A stretch of DNA of 12,010 bases, from the IMG/VR virus record IMGVR_UViG_3300045988_152045; one strand, given 5' to 3'. Position 1 is the stretch's first letter, and every line of letters starts with the position of its first letter. Origin of the DNA: a virus. The position numbers were made by a program, and so were the translations under genes. Below the pieces are notes generated by a model. The model saw nothing but the letters and a program-made list of their open reading frames with translations, had not been told where the DNA came from and ran no database searches. Shown one piece after another: positions 1 to 12,010 of this stretch.

Positions 1-85
1 TGCATTATTTTGTGTTGATTTTGTGTCAATTTTTGTGCATTATTTTGTGCCAAATTTTTTGATGTTTTGGAAACGTTACCAATGT
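1..85. repeat. Left inverted terminal repeat (ITR-L), 85 bp
   Basis: Checked base by base: 1-85 is the perfect reverse complement of 11926-12010, and identity stops at 86/11925. It contains an internal duplication of the terminal 14-mer TGCATTATTTTGTG (1-14 and 36-49). It also has four TTTTGTG boxes at 8-14, 19-25, 31-37 and 43-49. Confidence 0.95.
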
Positions 86-159
86 ATTATTTGTTTCTAC
101 CTATTATATAGTAAAAATGATGTTGTTTAAAATTGTTTGAAAATATTTTAAAATATCTA

Positions 160-187
160 TTGACAATAGAATATAAGGTGGTATAAT
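160..187 (+). promoter_or_regulatory. Sigma-A-type early promoter (P-left) with extended -10
   Basis: TTGACA (160-165), a 16-nt spacer, then TGgTATAAT (179-187). Phased A/T tracts upstream (TTGTTTAAAA, TTGTTTGAAAA and TATTTTAAAA at 123-153) resemble an UP element. The ATCTATTGAC, TATAATAG and AGAAAGAGAGGTA blocks are shared with the right-end promoter at 11481-11508. Confidence 0.75.
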
Positions 188-190
188 AGG

Positions 191-214
191 TTATGTAATC
201 AAGTTATTACATAA
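191..214. promoter_or_regulatory. Perfect 9-bp inverted repeat TTATGTAAT-N6-ATTACATAA at the predicted transcription start; candidate operator or 5' mRNA stem-loop
   Basis: 191-199 pairs perfectly with 206-214 (loop CAAGTT). It starts 4 nt after the -10 hexamer, so it covers the expected +1 of P-left. The geometry suits a dimeric HTH protein. Confidence 0.45.
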
Positions 215-242
215 AACAAAATAAGAAAGAGAGGTAGCAACA

Positions 243-596
243 ATGAGTATTGCTAACAAGTACAACAAAAGTAACATTTTTAATTTCACTGCACCGAAAG
301 ATTTTGAGTATTATTCATTACACGATTTATTTAACAATAATGGTAAAGATTTTGTGTATGAAATTAAAGCAATGTATATTAACAAAAAATCAAAGTTCGG
401 TGAAAGTCCAGTAATTGCAACAACAAATTGTTTTGTAAATCTTCCTAGTCATTTAACAGATACAGTAAAAGAAATGATTAGAGATACAGAAGTTGTTGAC
501 GCTGTAAATGGCGGTCATTTAGGGTTTCAAATTTACACATACGAAACCAAAAACCGTAAAGAGTTATGCTATTCGGTTAATTGGGTTGATTGCTAA
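243..596 (+). CDS. Hypothetical early protein, 117 aa (function unknown; speculative ssDNA-binding candidate by size and position only)
   Basis: ATG at 243 follows the strong SD AGAAAGAGAGGTA (225-237). It is the first gene after the consensus promoter and is followed by a hairpin plus T-run. I recognise no motif. Confidence 0.7.
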   Translation: MSIANKYNKSNIFNFTAPKDFEYYSLHDLFNNNGKDFVYEIKAMYINKKSKFGESPVIATTNCFVNLPSHLTDTVKEMIRDTEVVDAVNGGHLGFQIYTYETKNRKELCYSVNWVDC

Positions 597-620
597 ACCT
601 ATTTTGACAAATTAAACGGT

Positions 621-656
621 GGCGGTTGTGATAAAAAGCAACCGTCATTTTTCTTT
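621..656 (+). terminator. Candidate intrinsic terminator or attenuator after the first gene
   Basis: An 8-bp stem GGCGGTTG (621-628) / CAACCGTC (639-646) with one G-U pair and a 10-nt loop, followed by ATTTTTCTTT (647-656). Confidence 0.45.
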
Positions 657-675
657 AAAAGGTGGTGTTATTTTT

Positions 676-909
676 ATGAACGAATTTGATAAAAACAAAA
701 TCGGGTTATATTGTAAAAATTTTAGAGAACACATTTTACACGTTTCATTGATTGATTTTTGTAATGAAATGAATGAAAATTACAAGAATGTTTCAGCGTT
801 TGAAAATGGTCGAGCGAACAATATAAAGTATTTATTTCTTTATAAAAATATGTGTAAAAATGATAAAGAAAAAGAAATGTTTTGTACAGGGTTATTTGGT
901 GTGTTGTAA
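676..909 (+). CDS. Small XRE/Cro-like helix-turn-helix transcriptional regulator (77 aa from ATG 676)
   Basis: IGLYCKNFREHILHVSLIDFCNEMNENYKNVSAFENGRANNIKYL fits the XRE-family pattern: helix, then a (S/T)xxxhS..ENGr-type recognition helix. ATG 676 is preceded by AAAGGTGGTG. The track's GTG start at 619 lies inside the upstream terminator hairpin, so I prefer 676. Confidence 0.6.
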   Translation: MNEFDKNKIGLYCKNFREHILHVSLIDFCNEMNENYKNVSAFENGRANNIKYLFLYKNMCKNDKEKEMFCTGLFGVL

Positions 910-921
910 AGGGGGTAAAAT

Positions 922-1509
922 ATGTCAACAAAAATTGCAAGTGATGAATATAAAGCACTTAAAAAAGAAGTATCACGTATGGCAAGCATGGGAAACAAAA
1001 GATTGAAACGTCTTGAAACTAATGAATTAACAGATTTACCCTCTTATAAAAGTTGGGTTGACGGTGGTTCAATAAAGTTTAGCGTAAAAGGTAAAGACTA
1101 TAACCAATTACAAAGTGAATTTTGGCGGTTGAAACGGTTTCTTGATGATAAAACAAGTACGGTAAGAAGTGCAAACAAATTTTTGCGTGAAATGGCACAA
1201 AATACGGGTATTAAGTATAATGGTTTAGCAGATTTAAAAACAAAATCAAAACAGTTTTTTGAACTTGCTGAAAAGATTAAACAATATTATCAAAGTGCTA
1301 ATCAATCCGCTATTGCGTTAGACTATCAAAAAATATGGCAACAAATAAATACACAAATAAAGCAAGGTGTCATTAATATAGGCGGTACAGAAAGTACAGA
1401 AAGTATATTAAATAAGTATATTGCTGAAATGGATAAAGTACAACCCGTAGAAAATAAACAAGAGGGGTACAAAGATAATTCAAGTATTTACGATTTTATT
1501 CAGATTTAA
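922..1509 (+). CDS. Candidate terminal (priming) protein, 195 aa
   Basis: It lies immediately upstream of the protein-primed polymerase and is apparently translationally coupled to it, which matches the phi29 gene 3 - gene 2 order. The basic N-terminus SDEYKALKKEVSRMASMGNKRLKRL loosely recalls the phi29 TP N-terminal region (AEYARLVKNTKAKIAR, from memory). The C-terminal region is rich in Ser/Thr/Tyr. The call rests mainly on position. Confidence 0.5.
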   Translation: MSTKIASDEYKALKKEVSRMASMGNKRLKRLETNELTDLPSYKSWVDGGSIKFSVKGKDYNQLQSEFWRLKRFLDDKTSTVRSANKFLREMAQNTGIKYNGLADLKTKSKQFFELAEKIKQYYQSANQSAIALDYQKIWQQINTQIKQGVINIGGTESTESILNKYIAEMDKVQPVENKQEGYKDNSSIYDFIQI

Positions 1510-1511
1510 GG

Positions 1512-3659
1512 GTGGTGAGGTTTTTGTTAAATTATCAAGAAGTAGATTTTGAAAATATCGAATTTGAAACGGTTGCTAAATTTGATAAGCAAACAAAAAC
1601 CGTAAAACACTATATAAATATTGAATGTGGTTTTGATATTGAAACAACTTCAATGTTGATTGATGAAACACAAAAATTTGCGTTCATGTATGAGTGGACT
1701 TTTGGCATTAAAAACAAAGACTATATTTGTTATGGCAGAACGTGGGAACAATTCAAAGAGCTATGCAGTTATTTACAAGAAATTTATGAACTTTCACCCG
1801 ATAACAATATTTTAGTTGTTTACATACATAATTTTAGTTATGAGTTTCAGTTTATGCGTAAATACTTTGAATGGGAAAATGTTTTTGCAGTTGATGAACG
1901 TAAACCAATTAAGGCACTTTGTTCAATGGGTATTGAATTTAGAGATAGTTATATTTTATCGGGTTATTCTTTATCAAAACTTGCTGAAAATTTAGTTTCA
2001 CATAAAATTAAAAAATTGTATGGTGATTTAGATTATTCACTTATACGAACACATGAAACAGAATTAACAGAAAAAGAACTTGAATATTGTAACAATGATG
2101 TTGAAATAATACTTGATTATATCAATGAACAAATTGAACAATACGGAGATATAACAAAAATACCTATGACAAATACGGGTAGAGTTAGAAAGTTTGTAAA
2201 AGAAAAATGTTACTTTACAGACAAAAACCACAAGAAAAGTTCAAAAGGAAAATTTCAACGCTATAATGAGTTAATGAAAGAACTAACTTTAACAAGTGAT
2301 GAATATATTATGTTAAAGCGTTGTTTTATGGGTGGTTTCACACACGCAAGTATGTTATATAGTGAGCAACTTTTACACAACGTTGCAAGTATTGATTTTA
2401 CATCAAGTTATCCAGCGGTTATGTTGTCAGAAAAATTCCCTATGTCAAAGCCTATTCCAGTTGATTTAAAACGGGAAAATTTTTGGGAACTTTTAAAGAG
2501 TGATGATTATAGTATGATGTTTGACGTCAAATTTTACGGGTTGCATAGTAAATTAACGTTTGAAACATATTTAAGTGAAAGTAAATGTCAAATAAAAGAA
2601 AATGCAACAATAAACAATGGTCGTGTTTTTAGTGCTGATGTGGTTCAAACAACTATGACAAGTATTGATTTTAAAATAATGCAACAATGTTATAGTTGGG
2701 AACGGGTTGAGGTTGCTAATGTTTATAAGTTCTATATGCAGTATTTACCTAAAGCGATTTTAATGTCAATTCTTGAATTATACGGAAACAAAACAACGTT
2801 AAAAGGTGTAGAGGGTAAAGAGGTAGAATATTTGTTGTCAAAGGGTATGTTAAATAGTGTTTATGGAATGTGTGTTACTGATATTGTAAGAAATACAATA
2901 ACATACAATAACGGGTGGCAACTTGAAAAATTCACACAAGAAAGTATGCAAGAACAAATTGAAAAATACAATGACAGTAAAAACAGATTTTTATATTATG
3001 CGTGGGGTGTTTGGGTTACTGCATACGCACGTAAAAACTTATGGGTAGGTATTTTTAATATTGGTACTGATTATGTATATAGTGATACTGATAGTATAAA
3101 GTTGTTAAATTATGATAAACACAAACCGTTTATTGAGTGGTATAATAAGGATATTGAACGCAAGTTAAAATTGATGTGTGATTTTAGAAAAATTGATTTT
3201 AATTTGATGAAACCAAAAACAATAAAAGGTGTTGAAAAATTGATAGGTGTATGGGACTATGAGGGAATGTATGAAAATTTTAAAACTTTAGGTGCTAAAC
3301 GTTATCTTGTTTCAGAGGGTGGAAAACTACACTTGACAGTTGCAGGACTTTCAAAACAAAACGGAGTTGATTATATGTTAAAAATATGTAATAATAATAA
3401 CATTGATAAAGTTTTTGAAATTTTTAATGATGATTTATATATTCCCGAAATCGAAACGGGGAAAAATACTCATACTTATATTGATGAACCTATGACCGCA
3501 ATAGTTACAGATTATCAAGGTAATACAACAGAAATAACAAGTTTGTCAAGCGTGCATTTATCACCATGCGAATTTACTTTATCAATTAGTAAACAATATT
3601 CAAAGTTTTTACAAGATTTAAAGAACGGTTACTTGTTTACGGGTATTTCAGCAGAATAA
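1512..3659 (+). CDS. Family B DNA polymerase, protein-primed type (715 aa)
   Basis: Motifs read from the translation: Exo I FDIETT (D42/E44), Exo II YCNNDVEII, motif A IDFTSSYPAVM, motif B KGMLNSVYG, motif C YSDTDSIK, and a KxY-type GAKRYL. No in-frame ATG precedes Exo I, so the start must be non-AUG: GTG 1512, GTG 1515 or TTG 1524, next to the SD GGTGAGG at 1514-1520. The exact start is uncertain. Confidence 0.93.
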   Translation: MVRFLLNYQEVDFENIEFETVAKFDKQTKTVKHYINIECGFDIETTSMLIDETQKFAFMYEWTFGIKNKDYICYGRTWEQFKELCSYLQEIYELSPDNNILVVYIHNFSYEFQFMRKYFEWENVFAVDERKPIKALCSMGIEFRDSYILSGYSLSKLAENLVSHKIKKLYGDLDYSLIRTHETELTEKELEYCNNDVEIILDYINEQIEQYGDITKIPMTNTGRVRKFVKEKCYFTDKNHKKSSKGKFQRYNELMKELTLTSDEYIMLKRCFMGGFTHASMLYSEQLLHNVASIDFTSSYPAVMLSEKFPMSKPIPVDLKRENFWELLKSDDYSMMFDVKFYGLHSKLTFETYLSESKCQIKENATINNGRVFSADVVQTTMTSIDFKIMQQCYSWERVEVANVYKFYMQYLPKAILMSILELYGNKTTLKGVEGKEVEYLLSKGMLNSVYGMCVTDIVRNTITYNNGWQLEKFTQESMQEQIEKYNDSKNRFLYYAWGVWVTAYARKNLWVGIFNIGTDYVYSDTDSIKLLNYDKHKPFIEWYNKDIERKLKLMCDFRKIDFNLMKPKTIKGVEKLIGVWDYEGMYENFKTLGAKRYLVSEGGKLHLTVAGLSKQNGVDYMLKICNNNNIDKVFEIFNDDLYIPEIETGKNTHTYIDEPMTAIVTDYQGNTTEITSLSSVHLSPCEFTLSISKQYSKFLQDLKNGYLFTGISAE

Positions 3660-3705
3660 TAAAATGTTTCACGTGGAACAATTCAAAATGTTTCACGTGA
3701 AATAT
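3636..3705 (+). promoter_or_regulatory. Candidate late promoter with two tandem ATGTTTCACGTG boxes upstream of the packaging/structural genes
   Basis: The 15-nt direct repeat AAAATGTTTCACGTG occurs at 3661-3675 and 3685-3699, 24 bp apart. Box B, ATGTTTCACGTGAAATAT (3688-3705), is a near-perfect palindrome. Possible promoter elements are -35 TTTACG (3636-3641), an 18-nt spacer and -10 TAAAAT (3660-3665), ending at the same register relative to the box as at 8705-8710. The same box plus downstream block (TTATGAAAGTGAGGT) recurs at 8709-8745. Confidence 0.5.
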
Positions 3706-3725
3706 TATGAAAGTGAGGTTAAACA

Positions 3726-4829
3726 ATGGCAAAAGAAAAGACAAAATTTTATTCACTAAATAACATACTTTCAAAAGATTGTGTTTACAATGTTATTTTT
3801 GGTGAACGTTCAAACGGTAAAACATATAGTGTTTTAAAATATGCTATTGAACAATATATAAAAACGGGCGGTCAACTTGCGATTGTAAGACGTTGGAAAG
3901 AGGATATTGTCGGCAGACGTGCAAGTGATATATTTAGTGCATTAAATAACAATGGAGAAATTGAAAAAATAAGCAACGGAAAATATACGGGAATAACCTA
4001 TTTTGCAAGTAAATTTTATTTATGTAATTATGATGAAAACGGGAAACCCGTTTATAATATTGAAACTGATTGTGTTGCTTATGCGTTTGCTTTATCTGAA
4101 ATGGAACATAACAAAAGTATTTCATACCCAAAAATCACAACAATTATGTTTGATGAATTTTTGACAAAACACGTATATTTACAAGATGAATTTATTTTGT
4201 TTATGAACACTATTTCTACAATAGTGCGACAACGTACAAACGTTAAAATTTTCATGTTGGGTAATACCGTCAATAAATATTGTCCGTATTTTGAAGAAAT
4301 GGGATTGAACCATATTAAAGAAATGCAACAGGGTTCTATTGATGTATATACCTATGGTGAAAGCGAATTAAAAGTTGCGGTTGAATATTGTTCAAGTATT
4401 AGCAAGTCAAAAAAGAACAATTTTTATTTTGCTTTTAATAACCCGAAATTACACATGATAACCAATGGTGCGTGGGAGTTGGATATATACCCACATTTAC
4501 CTATAAAATATAAACCCAAAAATAAAATTTTTGAATATTTTATTGTGTTTGGTGGGAACACATACCATTGTGAGATTATCAATGATAACGGGGAACTGTT
4601 TACCTATATACATTTAAAAACAACAGAATTAAAAGACAATTCAAATGATTTAATATATTCACTTGATTTTAATTACAAGTTAAACTATAATAGGAATATA
4701 TTTAAACCAATTTCAGAGTTACAAAAACGCATATTGTGGTTTTTCCAAACAGACAGAGTTTTTTATCAAAGTAATGAGGTTGGAGACAGTATAAACAATT
4801 ATTTAAAAATTTGCAAAGGGGGTATCTAA
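3726..4829 (+). CDS. DNA encapsidation (packaging) ATPase, phi29 gp16-like (367 aa)
   Basis: Walker A GERSNGKT (aa 26-33) lies in the context FYSLNNILSKDCVYNVIFGERSNGKTYS...LAIVRRWKEDI. This parallels the phi29 gp16 N-terminus as I remember it (FY..ML.....NFVIGARGIGKSY...FIYVRRYK). Walker B is TTIMFDEF. The SD AGTGAGGT sits 6 nt upstream of the ATG. Confidence 0.85.
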   Translation: MAKEKTKFYSLNNILSKDCVYNVIFGERSNGKTYSVLKYAIEQYIKTGGQLAIVRRWKEDIVGRRASDIFSALNNNGEIEKISNGKYTGITYFASKFYLCNYDENGKPVYNIETDCVAYAFALSEMEHNKSISYPKITTIMFDEFLTKHVYLQDEFILFMNTISTIVRQRTNVKIFMLGNTVNKYCPYFEEMGLNHIKEMQQGSIDVYTYGESELKVAVEYCSSISKSKKNNFYFAFNNPKLHMITNGAWELDIYPHLPIKYKPKNKIFEYFIVFGGNTYHCEIINDNGELFTYIHLKTTELKDNSNDLIYSLDFNYKLNYNRNIFKPISELQKRILWFFQTDRVFYQSNEVGDSINNYLKICKGGI

Positions 4830-4832
4830 ACA

Positions 4833-5033
4833 ATGGACTATTCAACAGTTGTTCAACTTATTAACGGGGTTGGTTTCCCGATTGCGTGTTGTGTTGCTTT
4901 ATTTTATCAGAATACAAAGCAGTCAGAAAACCACAAAACAGAAATGAATGAACTGAAAACGGTTATTGAAAACAACACTTTAATTTTACGTGAATTGACA
5001 ACAAAAATTGATGATATGAAAGAGGATAATTAA
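4833..5033 (+). CDS. YvrJ-like small membrane protein (66 aa); candidate holin
   Basis: The N-terminal segment VVQLINGVGFPIACCVALFY has one hydrophobic helix with the GFP motif typical of the YvrJ family, followed by a charged coiled-coil-like tail. It is tightly coupled to neighbours (stop of the ATPase gene at 4829; TAAATG junction with the portal gene). Confidence 0.5.
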   Translation: MDYSTVVQLINGVGFPIACCVALFYQNTKQSENHKTEMNELKTVIENNTLILRELTTKIDDMKEDN

Positions 5034-6275
5034 ATGGCAAAAGTTGACAAATATTTTTTAAGTGAAAACAACCGTACTTTTGATATTACAGACAAGAAAA
5101 GAAATACACAAAATAATATCAAGTATATGTTAAACCGTTCTAATATTATGTTTGAGTATAAAAATTTACCCGAAACTATACCACAAAAAGAACTTGAATT
5201 ACTGTTACAATGTAACGGGTTTGCAATCTTTACAAAAATTAACGGTGAATTTTACGTTGTTAATGGTGGTTTAGGCGGTGAGGGTGATGTGTATAACAAT
5301 CCTACTATTGCAACGGTTTCTATACCTTGCCTAAATTATAATGCTAATTTAACCATTGATACAGATTGTATTATTATACCTAATGATACATTGTTAATCG
5401 GGTTGTTACCTATGTATGAAAAATACTGTACTTTAATGACAGAAAATGAAATAACAATGTTTCTTGCTGATGTGAATAAAAGAATACAAACTTTGTTATC
5501 GGCAAATGATGATAATACCGTTGCAAGTGCTAAAAAATATTTAGACGATATTTTAAACGGTAAAATCGGGGTAATTGCTGAACAAAGATTGTTTGATAGT
5601 TTAAAGGTAAATAACGCAACTCAAACAAATAGTGTTTCATTGACAGATTTATTTGAGTATGAACAATACTTAAAAGCAAGTATGTATAATGAAATTGGTT
5701 TAAGTGCTAACTACAATATGAAACGTGAACGTTTAACAAGTGCGGAAGTTGAAACAAATACAGATAACTTATATCCGTTGGTTGATGATATGTTAAACAA
5801 CAGAAGAAAAGCACTTGAAAAAATCAATGAAATGTACGGTTTGAATATTGAAGTAGAGTTCAATAGTTCATGGGATTATAGAATTAAAAACGGTGAACCG
5901 ATAGAAACGGGTGAAACTTTTGATGAAACAGACGGTGAAACAGAGGAAACAAAGGAAACAGAGGAAACAAAGGAAACAGAGGAAACAGAGGAAACAGAGG
6001 AAACAGAGGAAACAGAGGAAACAGAGGAAACAGAGGAAACAGAGGAAGAAACAGAGGAAATAGAGGAAGAAACGGAAACAGAGGAAACAGAGGAAACAGA
6101 GGAAACAGAAACAGAGGAAACAGAAACAGAGGAAACAGAGGAAACAGAGGAAACAGAGGAAACAGAGGAAACAGAGGAAGAAACGGAAACAGAGGAAACA
6201 GAGGAAACAGAGGAAACAGAAACAGAGGAAACAGAAACAGAGGAAACCGAAAATGACAAAAAAGAAAATGATTAG
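5034..6275 (+). CDS. Portal / head-tail connector (phi29 gp10-like upper collar) with a poly(Glu-Thr) C-terminal extension (413 aa)
   Basis: MFEYKNLPETIPQKELELLL, GDVYNNPT, NMKRERLTSAEV and EKINEMYGLNIEVEF parallel remembered phi29 gp10 segments (FEWENLPPTINPSFLE, RDVYNQAT, KKERMVTDEV, EKINELYGLNVKVKF). Residues 302-406 are almost purely E/T. Confidence 0.8.
   Translation: MAKVDKYFLSENNRTFDITDKKRNTQNNIKYMLNRSNIMFEYKNLPETIPQKELELLLQCNGFAIFTKINGEFYVVNGGLGGEGDVYNNPTIATVSIPCLNYNANLTIDTDCIIIPNDTLLIGLLPMYEKYCTLMTENEITMFLADVNKRIQTLLSANDDNTVASAKKYLDDILNGKIGVIAEQRLFDSLKVNNATQTNSVSLTDLFEYEQYLKASMYNEIGLSANYNMKRERLTSAEVETNTDNLYPLVDDMLNNRRKALEKINEMYGLNIEVEFNSSWDYRIKNGEPIETGETFDETDGETEETKETEETKETEETEETEETEETEETEETEETEEETEEIEEETETEETEETEETETEETETEETEETEETEETEETEEETETEETEETEETETEETETEETENDKKEND
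5937..6251 (+). repeat. In-frame 9-bp tandem repeat (GAAACAGAG = Glu-Thr-Glu) array with a 111-bp higher-order duplication
   Basis: The 315 nt consist of GAAACAGAG units with minor variants (GAAACAAAG, extra GAA, GAAACAGAAACAGAG). The block GAGGAAGAAACGGAAACAGAGGAAACAGAGGAAACAGAGGAAACAGAAACAGAGGAAACAGAAACAGAGGAAAC occurs twice, starting at 6063 and 6174. Confidence 0.95.
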
Positions 6276-6335
6276 TATTTATATCAAAAATTTCTTTTAC
6301 ATTTTACGGGTAAAATGGTTAATTAAAAACGGGTG

Positions 6336-6360
6336 TCGGCATAATTGTTTTTTATGCCGA
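6336..6360. other. Perfect 9-bp stem hairpin in the 137-nt portal-downstream gap
   Basis: TCGGCATAA (6336-6344) pairs with TTATGCCGA (6352-6360), loop TTGTTTT. There is no adjacent T-run on the + strand, so it is not a canonical terminator. It lies in the longest internal non-coding gap (6276-6412). Confidence 0.5.
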
Positions 6361-6412
6361 TATTCGTATGAATGTTTTACTCAACTAATGTATGAAAAAG
6401 AGGGTGTAAAAA

Positions 6413-6910
6413 ATGCCAGTACAAAAAATAAAAAGTGACTTGAATAATTTGTGTAATACTATTTCAAGAACTATAACAGAATGTGAACGAATGAAAACGT
6501 CTGTAAACGGTTTAGGTAATGTTTCCGAAAATGATTTAACACACATAATTTCAAGTGCTGATAATTGTATCAATTCAATAACAGTTTTTGACCGTATTTT
6601 AACAACCGTACATAATGAGTGTAGCATTGAATTAGATATATTCTTTAGAGATTTTAATACTAAAACTAAAATGTTAATGACGGATTGTAAAGAAATAATT
6701 GAACAATTAAAAACACTGATTGAAACTTGTCGGGGTTGTTATGAATTTTATCAAATTTCAAATGAAACTGAATGGATTGTAATGTGTGGTATTACCCCCG
6801 ATTTATTTAACTGGATTGAACAACCGTTATACAGTTTTAAAAATCAATTACAAATGGTTCAAATGTCAGCATATACAAACAACAACAAACTAATTGTGAA
6901 AGTGAGGTAA
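6413..6910 (+). CDS. Hypothetical protein, 165 aa (scaffolding-protein candidate by position only)
   Basis: ATG 6413 is preceded by AAGAGGGTG. The protein looks helical and is Cys-rich (8 Cys, including CRGC). It sits between the portal and capsid genes. No recognisable motif. Confidence 0.6.
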   Translation: MPVQKIKSDLNNLCNTISRTITECERMKTSVNGLGNVSENDLTHIISSADNCINSITVFDRILTTVHNECSIELDIFFRDFNTKTKMLMTDCKEIIEQLKTLIETCRGCYEFYQISNETEWIVMCGITPDLFNWIEQPLYSFKNQLQMVQMSAYTNNNKLIVKVR

Positions 6911-6913
6911 ATT

Positions 6914-7456
6914 ATGACAGTAAAAGAACAATTAAACGGGTTATTTGTTGAAATAGCAAAAATAAGAAATTTAGCGGTTTTCGATTGTTTTTCTCCGTCA
7001 ATATTAGATAAATATTATTGTGGTATGTATGGGGCAAGAACTTTATCAACTTTAGCAACCGAAAACAGTTTACATGATTTAGCAGAAATTATTGTTGAAT
7101 TTTACGGTACTAAATGGGATAGTATTCTTGCACAATACACCGCAAGTGTTACCGCATTAAAAGAATATAGTGAAAAAATTTGTGAAACAATTACAGATAA
7201 CGGAACTAATAATTTTACACGTGATAATAAAACACAAGTTTCAGCGTACAATGATGAAAATTTTGTTAATGATAATTCAGAAAATGAAACTCAACAGACA
7301 ACAACAGATAACACAAAAACACGTGAACAAACATTAACAAAGGTTAGAAACACAACAGAATATAAAGATTTAATTTTGTACTTGCGTAATGATTATTTAT
7401 GTGATATAATTTTTACAGATATAAATGATATATCAACTTTATCAATTTATGGATAA
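6914..7456 (+). CDS. Hypothetical virion-module protein, 180 aa (possible collar, adaptor or head-decoration component)
   Basis: ATG 6914 is preceded by AGTGAGGTAA, which overlaps the upstream stop. The central region is Asn/Thr/Gln-rich and low in complexity. It lies immediately upstream of the capsid gene. Function is not supported by any motif I can name. Confidence 0.6.
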   Translation: MTVKEQLNGLFVEIAKIRNLAVFDCFSPSILDKYYCGMYGARTLSTLATENSLHDLAEIIVEFYGTKWDSILAQYTASVTALKEYSEKICETITDNGTNNFTRDNKTQVSAYNDENFVNDNSENETQQTTTDNTKTREQTLTKVRNTTEYKDLILYLRNDYLCDIIFTDINDISTLSIYG

Positions 7457-7476
7457 AAGAAAGTGAGGTAAACACA

Positions 7477-8643
7477 ATGACAGTAAAACAGATTTTTACA
7501 TTGATGAACGGTGTAACAAGTGAAATTTTAGGCAAGTCAGAAATTGTAGCAGAGGACTTGTCAAACGTGGTTGATTTAGGTACAGAAATTTTTAACGCAA
7601 CAAGCGTTGATAATTATGTAAAATCTTTAGTAAACCATATCGGAAAAGTTATCTTTGTTGACCGTAAATATTCGGGTAACGTTCCGTCACTTGTTATGGA
7701 TAGTTGGCAGTTTGGTTCAGTCCTTGAAAAAATTACTGCTGATATTCCAAATGCAACAGAAAATGCAAGTTGGGAACTTGAAAACGGTAAAGAATATAGT
7801 CAAGATATTTTCTATAAACCGTCTGTAACAGCAAAATTCTTTAATTCAAAGGTTACTTTTGAAGTACCTATGTCATTTACAGAATTACAAGTAAAAGAGA
7901 GTTTTTCAAGTGCTAATCAGTTGAACGGTTTTGTAACAATGCTTTACAATGCAGTTGACAAGTCAATGACGGTTAAAATGGATAGTTTAATCATGCGTAC
8001 TATCAATAATATGATTGGCGAAACAGTTTACGCTGATTTATATGATAGTGTATCAAAAGATATTGTTCCAACAAATACGGGTGTACGTGCGGTAAACTTG
8101 TTAAAACTTTATAATGATAAATACGGTACAACTTTAACAGTTGATAAAGCAATTACCGATAAAGATTTTATCAGATTTGCAAGCTATACAATGTCGCTTT
8201 ATATGGATAGATTATCCAAAATTTCAACACTCTTTAATGTGGGTGGTAAAGAGCGTTTTACCCCGTCTGATATGTTGGGGGTTGTAATGTTATCAGAGTT
8301 TAAAGCAAGTGCAACAACGTTTTTACAGTCTGATACATTTCATGATAACTATGTTGCTTTACCAAATGCTGAAACAGTTCCATACTGGCAAGGTTCGGGA
8401 ACATCTTATAATTTTGCAGACACTTCAAAAATCAATGTAAAAACAAGTAGCGGTCACGTTGTAGAAATTGGCGGTATTCTTGCTATTATGTATGATAGAG
8501 ATAGCATGGGTGTTTGCAATCTTGACAGACGAGTTACAACCAACTACAACGCAAAAGCAGAGTTTTTTAACAATTATTATAAGTTTGACGCAAGTTATTT
8601 CAATGACTTAAATGAAAACTTTGTTGTATTCTTTGTAGCGTAA
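7477..8643 (+). CDS. Major capsid protein (388 aa), phi29 gp8-like
   Basis: The size and position fit, with a strong SD (AAAGTGAGGTAA) and a strong terminator directly downstream. The N-terminal segment VDNYVKSLVNHIGKVIFVDRKY resembles the remembered phi29 gp8 segment NDFITSLVDRIGLVVIRQ. Confidence 0.7.
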   Translation: MTVKQIFTLMNGVTSEILGKSEIVAEDLSNVVDLGTEIFNATSVDNYVKSLVNHIGKVIFVDRKYSGNVPSLVMDSWQFGSVLEKITADIPNATENASWELENGKEYSQDIFYKPSVTAKFFNSKVTFEVPMSFTELQVKESFSSANQLNGFVTMLYNAVDKSMTVKMDSLIMRTINNMIGETVYADLYDSVSKDIVPTNTGVRAVNLLKLYNDKYGTTLTVDKAITDKDFIRFASYTMSLYMDRLSKISTLFNVGGKERFTPSDMLGVVMLSEFKASATTFLQSDTFHDNYVALPNAETVPYWQGSGTSYNFADTSKINVKTSSGHVVEIGGILAIMYDRDSMGVCNLDRRVTTNYNAKAEFFNNYYKFDASYFNDLNENFVVFFVA

Positions 8644-8662
8644 TAAGTTACCGTAATAAAGG

Positions 8663-8705
8663 GCGGTTGACGGTTTAAAAACTTGAACCGTTTACCGTTC
8701 TTTTT
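8663..8705 (+). terminator. Rho-independent terminator after the capsid gene
   Basis: A 13-position stem GCGGTTGACGGTT (8663-8675) / AACCGTTTACCGT (8686-8698) with one mismatch and two G-U pairs, and a 10-nt loop. It is followed by TCTTTTT (8699-8705). Confidence 0.8.
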
Positions 8706-8726
8706 ATTATGTTTCACGTGAAACAT
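8683..8726 (+). promoter_or_regulatory. Candidate promoter (TTGAAC-16 nt-TATTAT) fused to a perfect 18-bp palindrome ATGTTTCACGTGAAACAT
   Basis: The elements are -35 TTGAAC (8683-8688) and -10 TATTAT (8705-8710). The perfect palindrome at 8709-8726, centred on CACGTG (8715-8720), would span the predicted +1. The downstream block TTTATGAAAGTGAGGTAA is conserved with 3705-3720. Confidence 0.5.
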
Positions 8727-8749
8727 TTTATGAAAGTGAGGTAATAAAA

Positions 8750-9181
8750 ATGTTGATGAAATTATACACAACTAAAACCCCGAATAATACAATCGGGAAA
8801 GTTTTAGAAAATGAAACAGAATACAACATAAAATTTAAAGCACAAGCCGACAGAACAAAACCCGTTGTTGTTTTAATGAGTGAAACAATGATTGATTTTA
8901 ATTATGCTTATATTCCCGATTTTAACCGTTATTATTTTGTTGAAAGTATAGAGGTTACACCAAACAAAATTTATAATATTTCTTTACGTTGTGACGTGTT
9001 AGAAAGTTTTAAAAATGATATATTAGAAAGTAGTGGTTTTGTTAATCAGCAGACAACCCCGAACAAATATTATAATTCAGATTATCAAACGGAGATTAAA
9101 AAAGAAGTTGACGTTATAAAAAGTAACGTTACTTTAGATACAACAAAAAGCACAATTTTAGTAACAATAGGGGGTGTTTAA
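8750..9181 (+). CDS. Small tail protein resembling the N-terminal domain of the phi29 gp9 tail knob (143 aa)
   Basis: FNYAYIPDFNRYYFVESIEVTPNKIYNISLRCDVLESFKNDI aligns by eye with the remembered phi29 gp9 segment [46 protein letters not shown]. It is the first gene after the capsid terminator. This relies on memory only. Confidence 0.4.
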   Translation: MLMKLYTTKTPNNTIGKVLENETEYNIKFKAQADRTKPVVVLMSETMIDFNYAYIPDFNRYYFVESIEVTPNKIYNISLRCDVLESFKNDILESSGFVNQQTTPNKYYNSDYQTEIKKEVDVIKSNVTLDTTKSTILVTIGGV

Positions 9182-9183
9182 AT

Positions 9184-10851
9184 ATGGTATGGTATTATAT
9201 TCATAATGCAAATAAAAACATAACTTCCACAAACCCAAATTTAACAATTTCAACATTTAGTTTCGGAGTTGAAATTGGTGGTGTAAATTGTGGCACGTGT
9301 GATAAACAATACAGAAGTGACGCTAGTTCAATTTCTGCATTTAGAAACATAAAACAACGTTTAGTTTTTGGCAACAAAAATTTTAACAAAGTTTCTGTTT
9401 GGTGTCATGCACGTTCAGGAAGTCCATACGGAACAATTAAAACATGGGTTGATGTTACGGAACAATTCACAATAAAAACATATCCGTCAAATGGAATTAT
9501 TGACTTGCAAGCAACAAGTGATTTCAAATATTCAAGCAGTTATGTTTATTTGTATGTTGCTATTGATGAAGAATTTTCAACAACATATACAATCACAAAT
9601 AACAACACAAATTGTATTTGTAATTCTGTAATTAAAAGTGAATACAAAAAGAACGAAAATATATCACTTGAATTTACTGCAAATGAGGGTTATATATTTA
9701 AAAGTAATAGTATAAGTTTAACAACGGGTGCATTAAATAACGCAAGTACAACATATTCTGATGATAGAAAAACATTAACTTTAACGGGTGCTATTATTGG
9801 TAATTTAACTATAAATGTTATTGCAAATGCTATTTACAATGTATCAATAACGGGAACATTAAAAAATTGTATTTGTAATTATTCAGACGGAGAAGTTATT
9901 ACAGAGGACAAACCCGATATTATTTTAACTGCAAATAACGGTTACGAATTTAACGGAGTTTATAATTATGTACGGGGTACAACTACACATAGTTTTTCAG
10001 TTAGTGATGATAAGAAAACATTATCTACACACATTTTAGACGGTTACAATTATAAATTAAATGATGAATACAAAGCAACAAAAATTGTTGAAAAAATCGG
10101 TAATTTTGCTAACCTATATTACACAAACGAAAGTGAATTAACAGAATTATCAAAAGTACGTTTTGTTAGTGACAGTTCAGCAACAGTTGATTATGGTAGT
10201 TTTATAACTGCCTTATATAAATTACCGTTTCCGATTGATAGTGGAATATTAACAGAGGAAAAAAGTAACATTATTTTAGGTAATTATGATAGTAATGTTA
10301 AAAGTACCCGTTTAATAACCTACAAAACAGAGATTGACGGGGGAACAATTAGTGTACCCGAAAAATATAAAAATGTATATGATTATCTGAATACCGAATG
10401 TATTTTACATTTACCACACTTTAACAAAATGCATATAAATACTGAATATGTAATCGGTCAAACTTTAACGATTAAATATATCATTGATTTATATACGGGT
10501 AACGTTACCGCAAATGTTTATTCAAGTTTTATTGATGATATTATAGAAACACAAACACAACAGATTGCGGAAAATATACCATTTATTCAGAAACAAAACA
10601 ATAGTGTTGTTGGCACAGTTTCCAACATAAATAAAAATGTTATTACTACCGCATTTATTGAAATTGTACGTAATATCCCGTATGACAATGAAAATATTTT
10701 TGGTAAAGAAACCATTGACTATTGTGTTATTGGCACAAAAACGGGTTATATAAAAGTTTCAGACGTTGTTTTAAATTGTACCGCAACAGTTGAAGAAAAA
10801 GAAGAAATTGAACAATTATTAAAAGAGGGGGTTTTTATAAATGGACACTAA
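9184..10851 (+). CDS. Tail / receptor-binding protein (555 aa) with two tandem ~85-aa beta-rich repeats
   Basis: It is the largest structural ORF and lies between the knob-like gene and the lysin. Repeats at about aa 135-216 and 218-297 share NCICN, (F/L)TAN(E/N)GY.F and SDD(R/K)KTL. A 16-nt DNA identity AATTGTATTTGTAATT occurs at 9610-9625 and 9865-9880 (255 bp = 85 aa apart). Confidence 0.55.
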   Translation: MVWYYIHNANKNITSTNPNLTISTFSFGVEIGGVNCGTCDKQYRSDASSISAFRNIKQRLVFGNKNFNKVSVWCHARSGSPYGTIKTWVDVTEQFTIKTYPSNGIIDLQATSDFKYSSSYVYLYVAIDEEFSTTYTITNNNTNCICNSVIKSEYKKNENISLEFTANEGYIFKSNSISLTTGALNNASTTYSDDRKTLTLTGAIIGNLTINVIANAIYNVSITGTLKNCICNYSDGEVITEDKPDIILTANNGYEFNGVYNYVRGTTTHSFSVSDDKKTLSTHILDGYNYKLNDEYKATKIVEKIGNFANLYYTNESELTELSKVRFVSDSSATVDYGSFITALYKLPFPIDSGILTEEKSNIILGNYDSNVKSTRLITYKTEIDGGTISVPEKYKNVYDYLNTECILHLPHFNKMHINTEYVIGQTLTIKYIIDLYTGNVTANVYSSFIDDIIETQTQQIAENIPFIQKQNNSVVGTVSNINKNVITTAFIEIVRNIPYDNENIFGKETIDYCVIGTKTGYIKVSDVVLNCTATVEEKEEIEQLLKEGVFINGH

Positions 10852-11464
10852 TGAATTTATTGATTTAATCGGTGATACAATTAAACGTGTTGCACTTGAA
10901 CGGGGTTACAAATACCCGTCAAGTGTGATAGCACAAGCAGTTATTGAAAGCGGTAACGGGAATAGTTTACTTGCTAAAAAGTATCATAATTATTTTGGTT
11001 TAAAGTGTGGTAGCGGTTGGAATGGTAAATCTGTTAATATGCAGACAAAAGAAGAATATACAACGGGAACACTAACAACAATACGTGATAATTTTCGTGT
11101 ATATGATGATATGGAAAGCGGTGTAAATGGTTACTTTGATTTTATTCAGTACCCACGTTATACCAATTTGAAAAATGCAACAAATTCAAGAAACTATTTA
11201 GAGTTATTAAAACAAGACGGTTATGCGACATCAAGTAAATATGTTGATAATGTGTATAACATTGTTGAAAAGTATAATTTAGAAAAGAGGTTCGATAATA
11301 TGACAAGTCAGACAATAATAGAAAAACATTTAACGGGTGATGAAATTATAACAATACTTGCTAAAGAGGTTATAAACGGTAAATACAGGAGCGGTGCAGA
11401 ACGTAAAAAACAGTTGGGTTGTTTATATGATTTAGTACAGAAAAAAGTTAATGAAATGTTATAA
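10841..11464 (+). CDS. Endolysin: GH73 N-acetylglucosaminidase domain plus one C-terminal CW_7 (Cpl-7-type) cell-wall-binding repeat (207 aa)
   Basis: VIAQAVIESGNGNSLLAKKYHNYFGLK and GYATSSKY are typical of the glucosaminidase (GH73) family. The C-terminal ILAKEVINGKYRSGAERKKQLGCLYDLVQKKVNEML matches the CW_7 pattern (G.yG.G..R...LG..Y..VQ..VN). It overlaps the upstream gene by 11 nt. Confidence 0.88.
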   Translation: MDTNEFIDLIGDTIKRVALERGYKYPSSVIAQAVIESGNGNSLLAKKYHNYFGLKCGSGWNGKSVNMQTKEEYTTGTLTTIRDNFRVYDDMESGVNGYFDFIQYPRYTNLKNATNSRNYLELLKQDGYATSSKYVDNVYNIVEKYNLEKRFDNMTSQTIIEKHLTGDEIITILAKEVINGKYRSGAERKKQLGCLYDLVQKKVNEML

Positions 11465-11480
11465 AATTTTCAAAAATCTA

Positions 11481-11508
11481 TTGACTTTAAAAACGTATCT
11501 GTTATAAT
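11481..11508 (+). promoter_or_regulatory. Sigma-A-type promoter (P-right) with extended -10, paralogous to P-left
   Basis: TTGACT (11481-11486), a 16-nt spacer, then TGtTATAAT (11500-11508), with an A/T-rich upstream region. The leader ends in the same AGAAAGAGAGGTA SD block as the left-end cassette. Confidence 0.75.
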
Positions 11509-11552
11509 AGATTATAGAAACAAACAAGCACAAAGAAAGAGAGGTAATTATT

Positions 11553-11852
11553 ATGCAAACAACATTAAAAACAAAAGTAACAGTTGCAACAATCTATGTT
11601 CTATTTAGTAACAAAGAAAAAGCAAGTGAAACAAGACGTGTTTTATTCATTGGTTCACCAACAACAGCAGAGGTTAAAAAAGAGTTTGAAAAAACATTAG
11701 TTGCTGATGAAATCAAGAAAACAACAGTTTGTGAACTTGAAAAAATAAATCTTATTTGCGATTTAACAAGTGCTATGTTAGTTAAAACCGTTGAAGATTT
11801 TATCATTGATTGTGCTAAAACAGTTACAGAGTTTGAAAGCACAATAATTTAA
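11553..11852 (+). CDS. Hypothetical protein, 99 aa, in an insulated right-end cassette
   Basis: ATG 11553 is preceded by AAGAAAGAGAGGTAA. It has its own consensus promoter and its own terminator. No recognisable motif. Confidence 0.7.
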   Translation: MQTTLKTKVTVATIYVLFSNKEKASETRRVLFIGSPTTAEVKKEFEKTLVADEIKKTTVCELEKINLICDLTSAMLVKTVEDFIIDCAKTVTEFESTII

Positions 11853-11882
11853 TAATCAAAATACAACTAAATAAACATTTAA

Positions 11883-11910
11883 AGAGTGATTGAAAATATC
11901 ACTCTTTTTT
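11883..11910 (+). terminator. Rho-independent terminator at the right genome end
   Basis: An 8-bp perfect stem AGAGTGAT (11883-11890) / ATCACTCT (11898-11905) with a 7-nt loop, running into TTTTTT (11905-11910). It sits just inside the right ITR. Confidence 0.85.
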
Positions 11911-11925
11911 GTTGCATTTTTATAA

Positions 11926-12010
11926 ACATTGGTAACGTTTCCAAAACATCAAAAAATTTGGCACAAAATAATGCACAAAAATTGACACAAAATCAACACA
12001 AAATAATGCA
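11926..12010. repeat. Right inverted terminal repeat (ITR-R), 85 bp
   Basis: Perfect reverse complement of 1-85. Confidence 0.95.

Follow-up and report, generated by a model that had tools for sequence, protein, structure and literature searches.

The window analyzed here, the whole 12,010-nt stretch of IMG/VR virus record IMGVR_UViG_3300045988_152045, was identified as a linear, nearly complete genome of a human-gut podophage that has not been cultured and that falls within the Astrithrvirus-like clade, a group of protein-primed tailed phages of the phi29 type; we assigned this reading a probability of about 0.85. The phage represents a new and probably genus-level member of a clade that is already described and well populated, rather than a near-unique minimal phage. 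An open reading frame (ORF) map placed 14 genes on the plus strand, which tiled the window with a coding fraction of ∼92%, and a separate gene call on this phage as assembled from a different sample (contig L011; related contigs are cited by such numbers) also gave 14 plus-strand genes. No credible minus-strand gene was detected in the ORF map, the minus-strand ORFs being short and lying inside plus-strand genes. Genes for replication, packaging, the virion and lysis were all present on one strand, and the GC content was 29.6% throughout. The phi29-type trio of a gp16-type ATPase, a gp10-type connector and a major capsid protein (MCP) was detected in the window, with all three above the Pfam cut-offs. 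A previous sequence-only reading had proposed a phi29-type protein-primed tailed phage of ∼12 kb, bounded by inverted terminal repeats (ITRs) and carrying about 14 genes on one strand, among them those for a family-B polymerase, a gp16 ATPase, a gp10 portal, capsid, tail and lysin. The overall proposal was supported, the gene count was confirmed, and the gene list was upheld by scans of the Pfam and PHROG families.

The genes shared with cultured clade members are listed below, each with its protein identity to those members.

922..1509, plus strand: terminal protein (TP) candidate, 195 amino acids (aa), pI 9.4, assigned from its position directly upstream of the polymerase gene and from clade homologs; 35 to 50%
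1512..3659, plus strand: protein-priming family-B DNA polymerase (PolB), 715 aa, assigned from Pfam, PHROG and motif alignment; 55 to 58% (48% for a Shigella phage)
3726..4829, plus strand: gp16-type DNA-packaging ATPase, 367 aa (Podovirus_Gp16, 2.8e-22); 59 to 63%
4833..5033, plus strand: holin, 66 aa, with one N-terminal hydrophobic segment (phrog_4898, 2e-13); 31 to 39% to holin-like proteins
5034..6275, plus strand: connector (portal, gp10-type), 413 aa (Phage_connector (GP10), 1.5e-21); 36 to 47%
6914..7456, plus strand: acidic 180-aa protein, homolog of astrithr gp07; 23 to 27% (astrithr, Astrid, DU_PP_III)
7477..8643, plus strand: MCP of phi29 type, 388 aa (Phi29_MCP, 2.4e-52); 55 to 61%
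8750..9181, plus strand: N-terminal part of the tail knob, 143 aa, from a clade profile match to tail-knob N termini; 29 to 34%
9184..10851, plus strand: C-terminal part of the tail knob, 555 aa, with an N terminus of ∼300 aa in an immunoglobulin (Ig)-like beta-sandwich, from clade alignment and an AlphaFold2 (AF2) model; 30 to 35%, C-terminal half only

Clade placement and known relatives

The protein searches that had been proposed as a check were run with PolB and MCP. Both proteins sat beside Astrithrvirus-like phages of 11.2 to 11.9 kb, so that the phage is not near-unique, and their neighbors included Enterobacter phage Entb_47, Vibrio phage K58 g2, Salmonella phage S.Kent 1-2-1 and a Shigella phage. 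Gene order was collinear with that of astrithr, Astrid, Phanie, DU_PP_III, Entb_47 and S.Kent (TP-Pol-ATPase-holin-connector-gp07-MCP-knobN-knobC). The MCP was 55 to 61% identical to those of the astrithr/Phanie/DU_PP_III group over 100% of its length, versus 29 to 35% for the next groups. Nucleotide similarity was low: a megablast against deposited phages gave one match only, at 71% over 4% of the window, similarity to Astrithrvirus astrithr fell short of the genus level of the International Committee on Taxonomy of Viruses (∼70% genome nucleotide identity), and the proteins were 23 to 63% identical. The clade corresponds to "cluster 23" of Evseev et al. 2024 (PMC11476376), which comprises phages of 11 to 14 kb with counterparts of p2, p3 and p5, a two-gene tail knob and no fiber or spike genes. 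The window shares with this cluster both the split knob and the absence of fiber, spike and appendage genes.

Relatives were numerous in metagenomic data. IMG/VR held ∼270 MCP relatives, and nearly all of the 80 that were fetched measured 11 to 12.7 kb; a large protein collection contained 713 tail-protein relatives, none of them on a contig longer than ∼12.85 kb; and the species-level MCP cluster had 30 members, with contigs of up to 12.1 kb. Mycoplasma phage P1 had been named as one of very few comparably small tailed phages, but this rarity did not hold, given the cultured clade members and the hundreds of gut metagenomic relatives. The placement of the genome near the lower size limit of tailed phages was supported, since astrithr (11.6 kb) and Mycoplasma phage P1 (11.7 kb) are the smallest isolated tailed phages (PMC7762592). 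Most gut relatives in IMG/VR (L018-L092) had a GC content of 43 to 44%, a length of 11 to 11.7 kb and ITRs of ∼220 or ∼269 nt. Single protein clusters of this group contained up to 2,331 member sequences, indicating that it is very common in public gut data, and the knob gene was apparently not followed by a separate endolysin gene (L021).

The uniform size of these relatives also bears on whether the window could instead be cut from a larger genome or represent a prophage or linear plasmid. Linear plasmids and phage-plasmids with PolB and ITRs exist among phi29 relatives, an example being Enterococcus plasmids (PMC11476376). However, hundreds of relatives end at 11 to 12.85 kb, have their first and last genes in common and were never embedded in larger contigs, the window carries a full set of virion and lysis genes, scans of the Pfam and PHROG families detected no integrase, partition or lysogeny genes in it, and cultured relatives of the same size are described in the literature as forming particles. 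A fragment of a larger genome, a concern raised at the outset, was thus not borne out by relatives whose contigs stop at ∼12.85 kb, and we regard this alternative to a near-complete phage genome as highly improbable.

Astrithrvirus and its allies (astrithr, Astrid and assan of Salmonella, DU_PP_III of Pectobacterium and Entb_47 of Enterobacter) resemble the window in having ITRs, a split knob and an acidic connector tail; they measure 11.2 to 11.9 kb, are collinear from TP to endolysin and are 55 to 63% identical in PolB, ATPase and MCP, and their terminal GGG(T/A)TATCC is shared with a 93%-identical relative of the window. They differ in having a GC content of 36 to 40% (29.6% in the window), minus-strand right-arm genes where the window has a single plus-strand gene for a 99-aa protein, and a CHAP, amidase or M15 endolysin instead of the GH73 plus CW_7 enzyme of the window. 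The window has in addition a 165-aa gene and a left-end gene for a single-stranded DNA-binding protein (SSB), the Ig-like N-terminal half of its knob is unrelated to theirs, and it comes from the human gut with a probably Gram-positive host, whereas the allies have Gram-negative hosts. Acinetobacter phage Aci01-2-Phanie belongs to the same clade, with the same layout and ITRs, and is 58% (PolB) and 61% (MCP) identical to the window. It shares the split knob (gp9/gp10), and its terminus, GGGTTATCC, is that of the 93%-identical relative, L101. Unlike the window, Phanie has two right-arm genes on the minus strand, and its gp10 (854 aa) differs in its N-terminal domains from the 555-aa knob protein.

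More distant similarity was observed to Bacillus phage phi29 (Salasmaviridae), which has a protein-primed PolB, gp16, gp10, MCP and a gp9-like knob, and in which SSB, TP and PolB lie together in one early operon, as in the window. PolB identity was only ∼24%. The phi29 genome is 19.3 kb with a 6-bp ITR, compared with ∼12.26 kb and an ITR of ∼211 nt for the phage of the window, and its early and late transcription is divergent whereas all 14 genes of the window are on the plus strand, a contrast correctly drawn by the sequence-only reading. The packaging RNA (pRNA), head fiber, gp12 appendages, gp13 tail lysin, p6 and separate scaffold of phi29 were not recognizable in the window. Amedibacillus phages AD70P2 and AD70P3 and the human-fecal contig MT836125, all human or sewage derived, are likewise phi29-like genomes of 12.2 to 12.7 kb with low GC and ITRs, but their PolB and MCP are 29 to 36% identical to those of the window, their gene order is different and their connector has no acidic tail. 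Mycoplasma phage P1 (Dybvigvirus), of comparable size at 11.7 kb, appears in lists both of the smallest tailed phages and of phi29 relatives (PMC7762592, PMC11476376); it was not among the PolB or MCP matches, and no direct comparison was made. Overall, the window adds a well-annotated low-GC, probably Gram-positive-infecting gut lineage to a clade in which the smallest tailed phages known are found.

Genome ends and replication

A repeat scan detected ITR arms of 85 nt at positions 1-85 and 11926-12010, 100% complementary and exactly at the window ends.

1..85, plus strand: left ITR, inner part only, with four TTTTGTG repeats starting at 8, 19, 31 and 43
11926..12010, minus strand: right ITR, inner part only, from the repeat scan and the L011 extension

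These perfect end repeats had been read as the genome termini. The repeat itself was confirmed, but its length and exact end positions are not biological and reflect a cut made during assembly. Contig L011 (11,983 bp; human gut run ERR414248, PRJEB5224) is 99.7 to 99.97% identical to the window and hence the same phage, and it reached 42 nt past the window on both sides. Its ITR was exactly 127 nt, the same as the k-mer in its record name, and contained two tandem 34-nt units in the part that falls inside the window. A second contig, L101 (12,107 bp, 93.3% identical), aligned to window positions 1-12010 through its positions 127-12056, and its left end therefore lay 126 nt beyond the window, opening with GGGTTATCC (left-end sequence GGGTTATCCCCCCCCTCCCCCC...). 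Positions 1-127 of L011 matched 85-211 of L101. The terminal motif GGGTTATCC was common to L101, Phanie and DU_PP_III, the genomes of the two cultured relatives opening with GGGTTATCCGCCCCCCTCC and GGGATATCCGCCCCCCCCCC, respectively, and was also present at the furthest-reaching (right) end of L016. The form GGG(T/A)TATCC(G/C)CCCCC covered L101, L016, Phanie and DU_PP_III, and the window stops ∼126 nt short of it. From the L011 and L101 extensions and the shared terminal motif, we infer a true ITR of ∼211 nt and a genome of ∼12.26 kb, with the window lacking the outer ∼126 nt at each end, origins included. The earlier description of the window as complete thus stood for its genes, all of which are present, but not for its termini. 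Matches to the outer ITR of this exact strain were not found in IMG/VR or Joint Genome Institute metagenomes, and look-ups by terminal genes gave no longer contig of the strain.

In de Bruijn assembly, both copies of the ITR become a single node, and the output consists of the unique part flanked at each end by approximately k bases of the repeat. Collapse of both ITR copies by such an assembler accounts for perfectly symmetric, truncated ITRs, and end-anchored ITR lengths of 85 (in three unrelated lineages), 99, 119 and 127 nt recurred among the related contigs. The sharp symmetric 85-nt ends of the window are therefore an assembler truncation. When metagenomic contigs of this clade have symmetric ITR ends, the cause is usually such a truncation, and completeness calls that equate an ITR with a complete genome overstate completeness.

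The technical origin of the exact length and symmetry, the recurrence of the same lengths in unrelated contigs and the coincidence of the L011 ITR with k-mer 127 could also be taken to mean that the whole inverted repeat is an assembly or chimeric artifact of a molecule that is really circular or terminally redundant. We consider this very improbable. Independent assemblies lengthened the same repeat sequence to 127 and ∼211 nt, and annotated ITRs of cultured relatives range from 84 to 219 nt (Astrid, 84; Phanie, 171; DU_PP_III, 219). Among the 82 related contigs of at least 10.5 kb, 55 had end-anchored ITRs and none had direct terminal repeats. Furthermore, linear ends with ITRs are what would be predicted from a protein-priming PolB encoded next to a TP candidate. 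The suspicion of an artifact was thus justified for the 85-nt truncation and not for the repeat, which is real across assemblies. Given the absence of direct repeats (0/82), the frequency of ITRs (55/82) and the unit size, neither a fragment, a prophage nor a circular genome is a serious reading. A linear, ITR-ended genome is a trait of the clade.

The outermost ∼9 to 16 nt (GGGTTATCC plus a C-run) are conserved from Acinetobacter and Pectobacterium isolates to the gut lineage. Since polymerase identity over the same range is only ∼55%, this conservation points to a minimal replication origin, and the GGG(T/A)TATCC terminus is probably the minimal origin recognized by the TP-polymerase complex. 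The motif and its C-run were retained across L101, L002 and L003 (positions 1-20) and at the right end of L016, the remaining ITR sequence being unrelated.

The left part of the window contains a predicted replication operon, in which the following elements accompany the genes for TP and PolB; a second promoter of similar sequence lies in the right arm.

160..187, plus strand: early promoter P1, TTGACA-16-TATAAT with a TG extension, 12/12 consensus match
243..596, plus strand: SSB, 117 aa, from the fold match of an AF2 model; functional analogue of phi29 p5
676..909, plus strand: small protein, 77 aa, with the ATG start at 676 as called in L011 and L101 (96 aa if starting at GTG 619)
11481..11508, plus strand: promoter P2, TTGACT-16-TATAAT with TG, 11/12 match

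A 61-nt copy of the P1 region, 72% identical, was found at 11463-11523 by the repeat scan. In BFVD, the AF2 model of the 117-aa protein (pLDDT 81.4) matched the Staphylococcus picovirus JBug18 SSB best (TM, 0.72; E, 7e-10; 38% identity), and its fold matches in the PDB were weak and limited to OB-fold SSB/RPA proteins. A homolog was retained in all gut lineages but was undetected in the cultured clade isolates by gene-by-gene comparison. The 77-aa protein was ∼35% identical to Phanie gp01, had no match in Pfam, PHROG, NCBIfam or the PDB, and is a possible helix-turn-helix regulator on a motif read by eye only. The TP candidate is the small basic protein that had been noted to precede the polymerase gene; it was 35 to 50% identical to the protein encoded upstream of PolB in the genomes of astrithr, Phanie and DU_PP_III, which has been called the p3 counterpart (PMC11476376).

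PolB gave matches to Pfam DNA_pol_B_2 (4.6e-12) and phrog_1907 (1e-75), and its motifs were located by alignment to the phi29 polymerase (PDB 1XHX) and direct reading. The exonuclease motifs comprised Exo I FDIETT (residues 41-47), Exo II HNFSYEF (106-114) and Exo III YCNNDVEI (192-200), and the polymerase motifs Pol A DFTSSYP (295-304), Pol B KGMLNSVYG (444-452) and Pol C YSDTDSI (523-529), together with TAYAR (502-508; TxxAR motif) and the KxY motif GAKRY (594-599). The Exo I/II, Pol A/B/C and KxY set claimed earlier was thus located in full, with Exo III in addition.

The order SSB, 77-aa protein, TP candidate and PolB mirrors the gene 5-4-3-2 block of phi29. By its match to the sigma-70/sigma-A consensus, P1 would drive this operon of SSB, small protein, TP and PolB. 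By homology, replication would start at both ends of the linear DNA, with the TP candidate priming PolB at origins in ∼211-nt ITRs that would begin 5'-GGGTTATCC... The 5'-GGG ends suggest priming on the terminal 3'-CCC of the template, TP-dGMP would form on templates ending 3'-CCCAATAGG, and the 117-aa SSB would coat the displaced strands.

Tail knob, probable host and possible helper dependence

Two genes encode the tail knob. For the 143-aa protein, the clade profile matched the N-terminal regions of the knobs of C1 (4EO2, 8e-6), Andhra (8EGS, 1.6e-3) and phi29 gp9 (5FB4, 0.05), and hhalign of the profile against phi29 gp9 gave an E value of 4e-4. Only the C-terminal half of the 555-aa protein aligned to the gp10 of astrithr and Phanie (30 to 35%). 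Its N-terminal half was confidently modeled by AF2 as an Ig-like beta-sandwich; a fold search with the whole model returned weak matches, exclusively to multi-Ig proteins, and a profile search of PDB sequences found nothing for this protein. The knob N-terminal region (9184-10100) was 94 to 95% identical to L015, for which the genome average was ∼75%, and only 36 to 55% identical to L013, with a genome average of ∼79%. This reversed trend indicates recent module exchange. Such a mosaic pattern is expected of a specificity determinant, and the 555-aa protein is likely to have this role. The short tail would comprise a presumed lower collar and the two-gene knob, and the Ig-like domains of the larger knob protein would probably set specificity.

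The endolysin and several other features have a bearing on the host.

10841..11464, plus strand: modular endolysin, GH73 glucosaminidase plus CW_7 repeat, 207 aa (Glucosaminidase, 1.3e-27; CW_7, 1.7e-13)

Gene-by-gene comparison detected no counterpart of this enzyme in cultured clade members. From the identities of the genes, lysis would use the holin, whose homolog in Astrid is annotated with one transmembrane segment, and the GH73 plus CW_7 endolysin. Strong GAGG/GGGGG Shine-Dalgarno sites preceded every gene, and P1 and P2 were sigma-A-type promoters with an extended -10. These sites and promoters, the GC content of 29.6%, the CW_7 lysin and the picovirus-like SSB favor a low-GC Gram-positive host, and the phage probably infects a gut bacterium of the Bacillota, although the case is weak. 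The best cellular homolog of the lysin (56%) was in a Lachnospiraceae genome, and lysin matches in bacterial genomes were few and mixed, coming from Lachnospiraceae, Verrucomicrobiota and metagenome-assembled genomes of "Mollicutes"/Firmicutes.

Several observations weighed against the assignment of the window to a phi29-type phage of a gut lineage with a Gram-positive host. The host evidence is indirect and every cultured clade member comes from a Gram-negative host; the closest homologs of the endolysin were all on other small phage contigs, one of them in a doubtful Caryophanon bin. The true termini of this strain were deduced from L101, a 93%-identical relative. Similarity of the TP candidate to phi29 gp3 was not detectable by either a profile search of PDB sequences or profile-profile comparison, and the 195-aa protein stays a candidate TP. 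The lower collar and scaffold were without confident identification, and profile-profile comparison with phi29 gp3, gp4, gp5, gp6, gp7, gp11, gp13 and gp17 gave no match besides the knob. Finally, no pRNA was detected in the window (Rfam, E ≤ 1) or in five relatives, although the phi29 motor needs one. A prohead or packaging RNA is known only for phi29 and close Bacillus phages. The Pfam and PHROG scans likewise detected no head-fiber, fiber, spike or appendage homolog among the window proteins, upholding the earlier statement that pRNA, head fiber and appendage genes were not recognizable.

The same phage may depend on a helper in the manner of Phanie, having its own replication, packaging and lysis functions but being infectious only when docked on the contractile tail of an unrelated co-infecting myophage. 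We regard this as possible, though doubtful. Phanie, the only clade member whose mechanism has been studied, reportedly becomes infectious only once attached to the contractile tail of its helper myophage, Aci01-1 (PMC11476376, citing Pourcel et al. 2024), and the autonomy implied by the earlier term "minimal virion-plus-replication system" cannot be assumed. Leaving adsorption and penetration to another phage would account for a genome this small. The same dependence has been suggested for relatives with a split knob and no fiber or spike genes (PMC11476376), both of which traits are found in the window. Furthermore, several cultured relatives seem to have been recovered as secondary genomes from mixed lysates or cocktails, as would be predicted if many clade members depended on a helper. 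The names of Vibrio K58 "g2" (OZ195715), S.Kent "NODE_9" (OR850881) and DU_PP_III, with locus tag "P9AB12kb" (MF979562), suggest secondary genomes; PX674062 came from a nine-phage Salmonella cocktail, and Aci01-2 was also recovered beside another phage.

However, dependence has been reported for one member only and others have been described as non-satellite (bioRxiv 10.1101/2025.06.18.659913). The Ig-like N-terminal half of the knob in the window is unrelated to that of Phanie, so any docking specificity is not conserved: the distal domains of Phanie gp10 had no homolog in the window, and the C-terminal half of the knob alone aligned (30% over 42% of the query). In addition, the lineage of the window probably has a Gram-positive host, where a tail-docking mechanism is unreported. 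A broader form of the proposal, in which the abundant low-GC gut lineage would be a Phanie-like tail-hijacking satellite in a Gram-positive (Bacillota) host with Ig-like knob domains that dock on the helper tail, appears unlikely. If this were true, helper dependence would be a clade-wide strategy behind the smallest tailed-phage genomes. Since the one studied clade member is reported to be helper dependent, the very common gut relatives are candidates for asking whether extreme genome reduction accompanies tail hijacking, and interest in the gut lineage would rise if it proved to be helper dependent or to infect Gram-positive bacteria.

Packaging genes, candidate regulatory elements and the right arm

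Under the preferred reading of the window as a phi29-type podophage genome, the gp16-type ATPase would package DNA via the gp10-type connector into a small phi29-type capsid. The connector ended in a poly-acidic C-terminal tail of 129 aa (56% Glu, 29% Thr; window 5886-6275) that was encoded by ∼35 tandem 9-nt units (5937-6247). Connector length varied between samples and relatives, being 413 aa in the window, 376 aa in L011 (the same phage) and 382 aa in L101. Acidic tails of 20 to 150 aa occurred clade-wide and were absent from phi29, AD70P2 and MT836125. Since no scaffold gene was recognizable, a role of the tail as an internal scaffold or DNA mimic is conceivable. The MCP was 87% identical to that of L013. 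The acidic gp07-like protein is presumed to be a short lower collar, and a shortened lower collar has been reported for the clade (PMC11476376); a profile search of PDB sequences and profile-profile comparison with phi29 proteins gave no match for it. The following elements are located between and around these genes.

3664-3681 and 3688-3705, no strand assigned: two copies of the palindrome ATGTTTCACGTGAAACAT, upstream of the ATPase gene
6276..6412, plus strand: conserved non-coding gap of 137 nt with a strong hairpin, after the connector gene
6413..6910, plus strand: lineage-specific 165-aa protein with homologs only in L013, L015, L016 and L017
8644..8749, plus strand: intergenic region after the capsid gene, with a hairpin and T-run (by eye) followed by a perfect palindrome copy at 8709-8726

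The 165-aa protein had no family or PDB match, and its assignment as a scaffold from its position would be only a guess.

The 18-nt palindrome ATGTTTCACGTGAAACAT had three matches in the window, against 0.02 expected, the third preceding the tail genes downstream of the hairpin that follows the capsid gene. Its position was conserved in L101, L013, L015 and L016; in more distant gut lineages it lay inside the ITRs (the motif was also seen in L021 and L047), and it was absent from all cultured clade members. The simplest reading makes the palindrome an operator or late-promoter element serving a regulator that the phage would encode, and its copies before the ATPase block and the tail block would probably mark regulated late transcription. 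The 117-aa protein had been considered as the palindrome binder, and this candidate was dropped once its model matched picovirus SSBs. Co-occurrence counts for the 117-aa gene and the palindrome were 68 with both, 7 with neither, 4 with the gene only and 2 with the motif only.

The 137-nt gap folded with a minimum free energy of -40.1 kcal/mol (z, -6.65). Its bin 6301-6400 was 97% identical to L013, the most conserved of the 100-nt bins, and was flanked by the least conserved regions. The hairpin was only partly maintained in L015 and L016, and the gap was without a counterpart in cultured relatives. It is probably a terminator or regulatory element. As a pRNA it was rejected, since it forms a single long hairpin, is only partly kept in L015/L016 and has no cultured-relative counterpart. 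The gap contains ATGAATGTTTTAC, which resembles a palindrome half-site. A 61-aa ORF (6253-6438) that overlaps the gap is doubtful and was not called in L011 or L101.

The last gene of the window and an adjacent terminator completed the right arm.

11553..11852, plus strand: 99-aa protein with its own promoter and terminator, the last gene before the right ITR; 78% identity in L013
11881..11907, no strand assigned: bidirectional intrinsic terminator just inside the right ITR

The 99-aa protein matched no known family or structure, and its position was occupied by an 89-aa gene in L015 and L016. The right arm is a variable cargo region across lineages. In L015 (10707-11931) and L016 (10771-11995), the endolysin gene of the window was replaced by genes for a winged-helix protein (Cdc6_C/RFX-like) and a 298-aa Sigma70_r2 protein; no lysin gene was seen in the right arms examined, and homologs of the holin and endolysin of the window were not detectable in these two contigs. 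The right arm of L047 carried an M15 peptidase gene on the minus strand.

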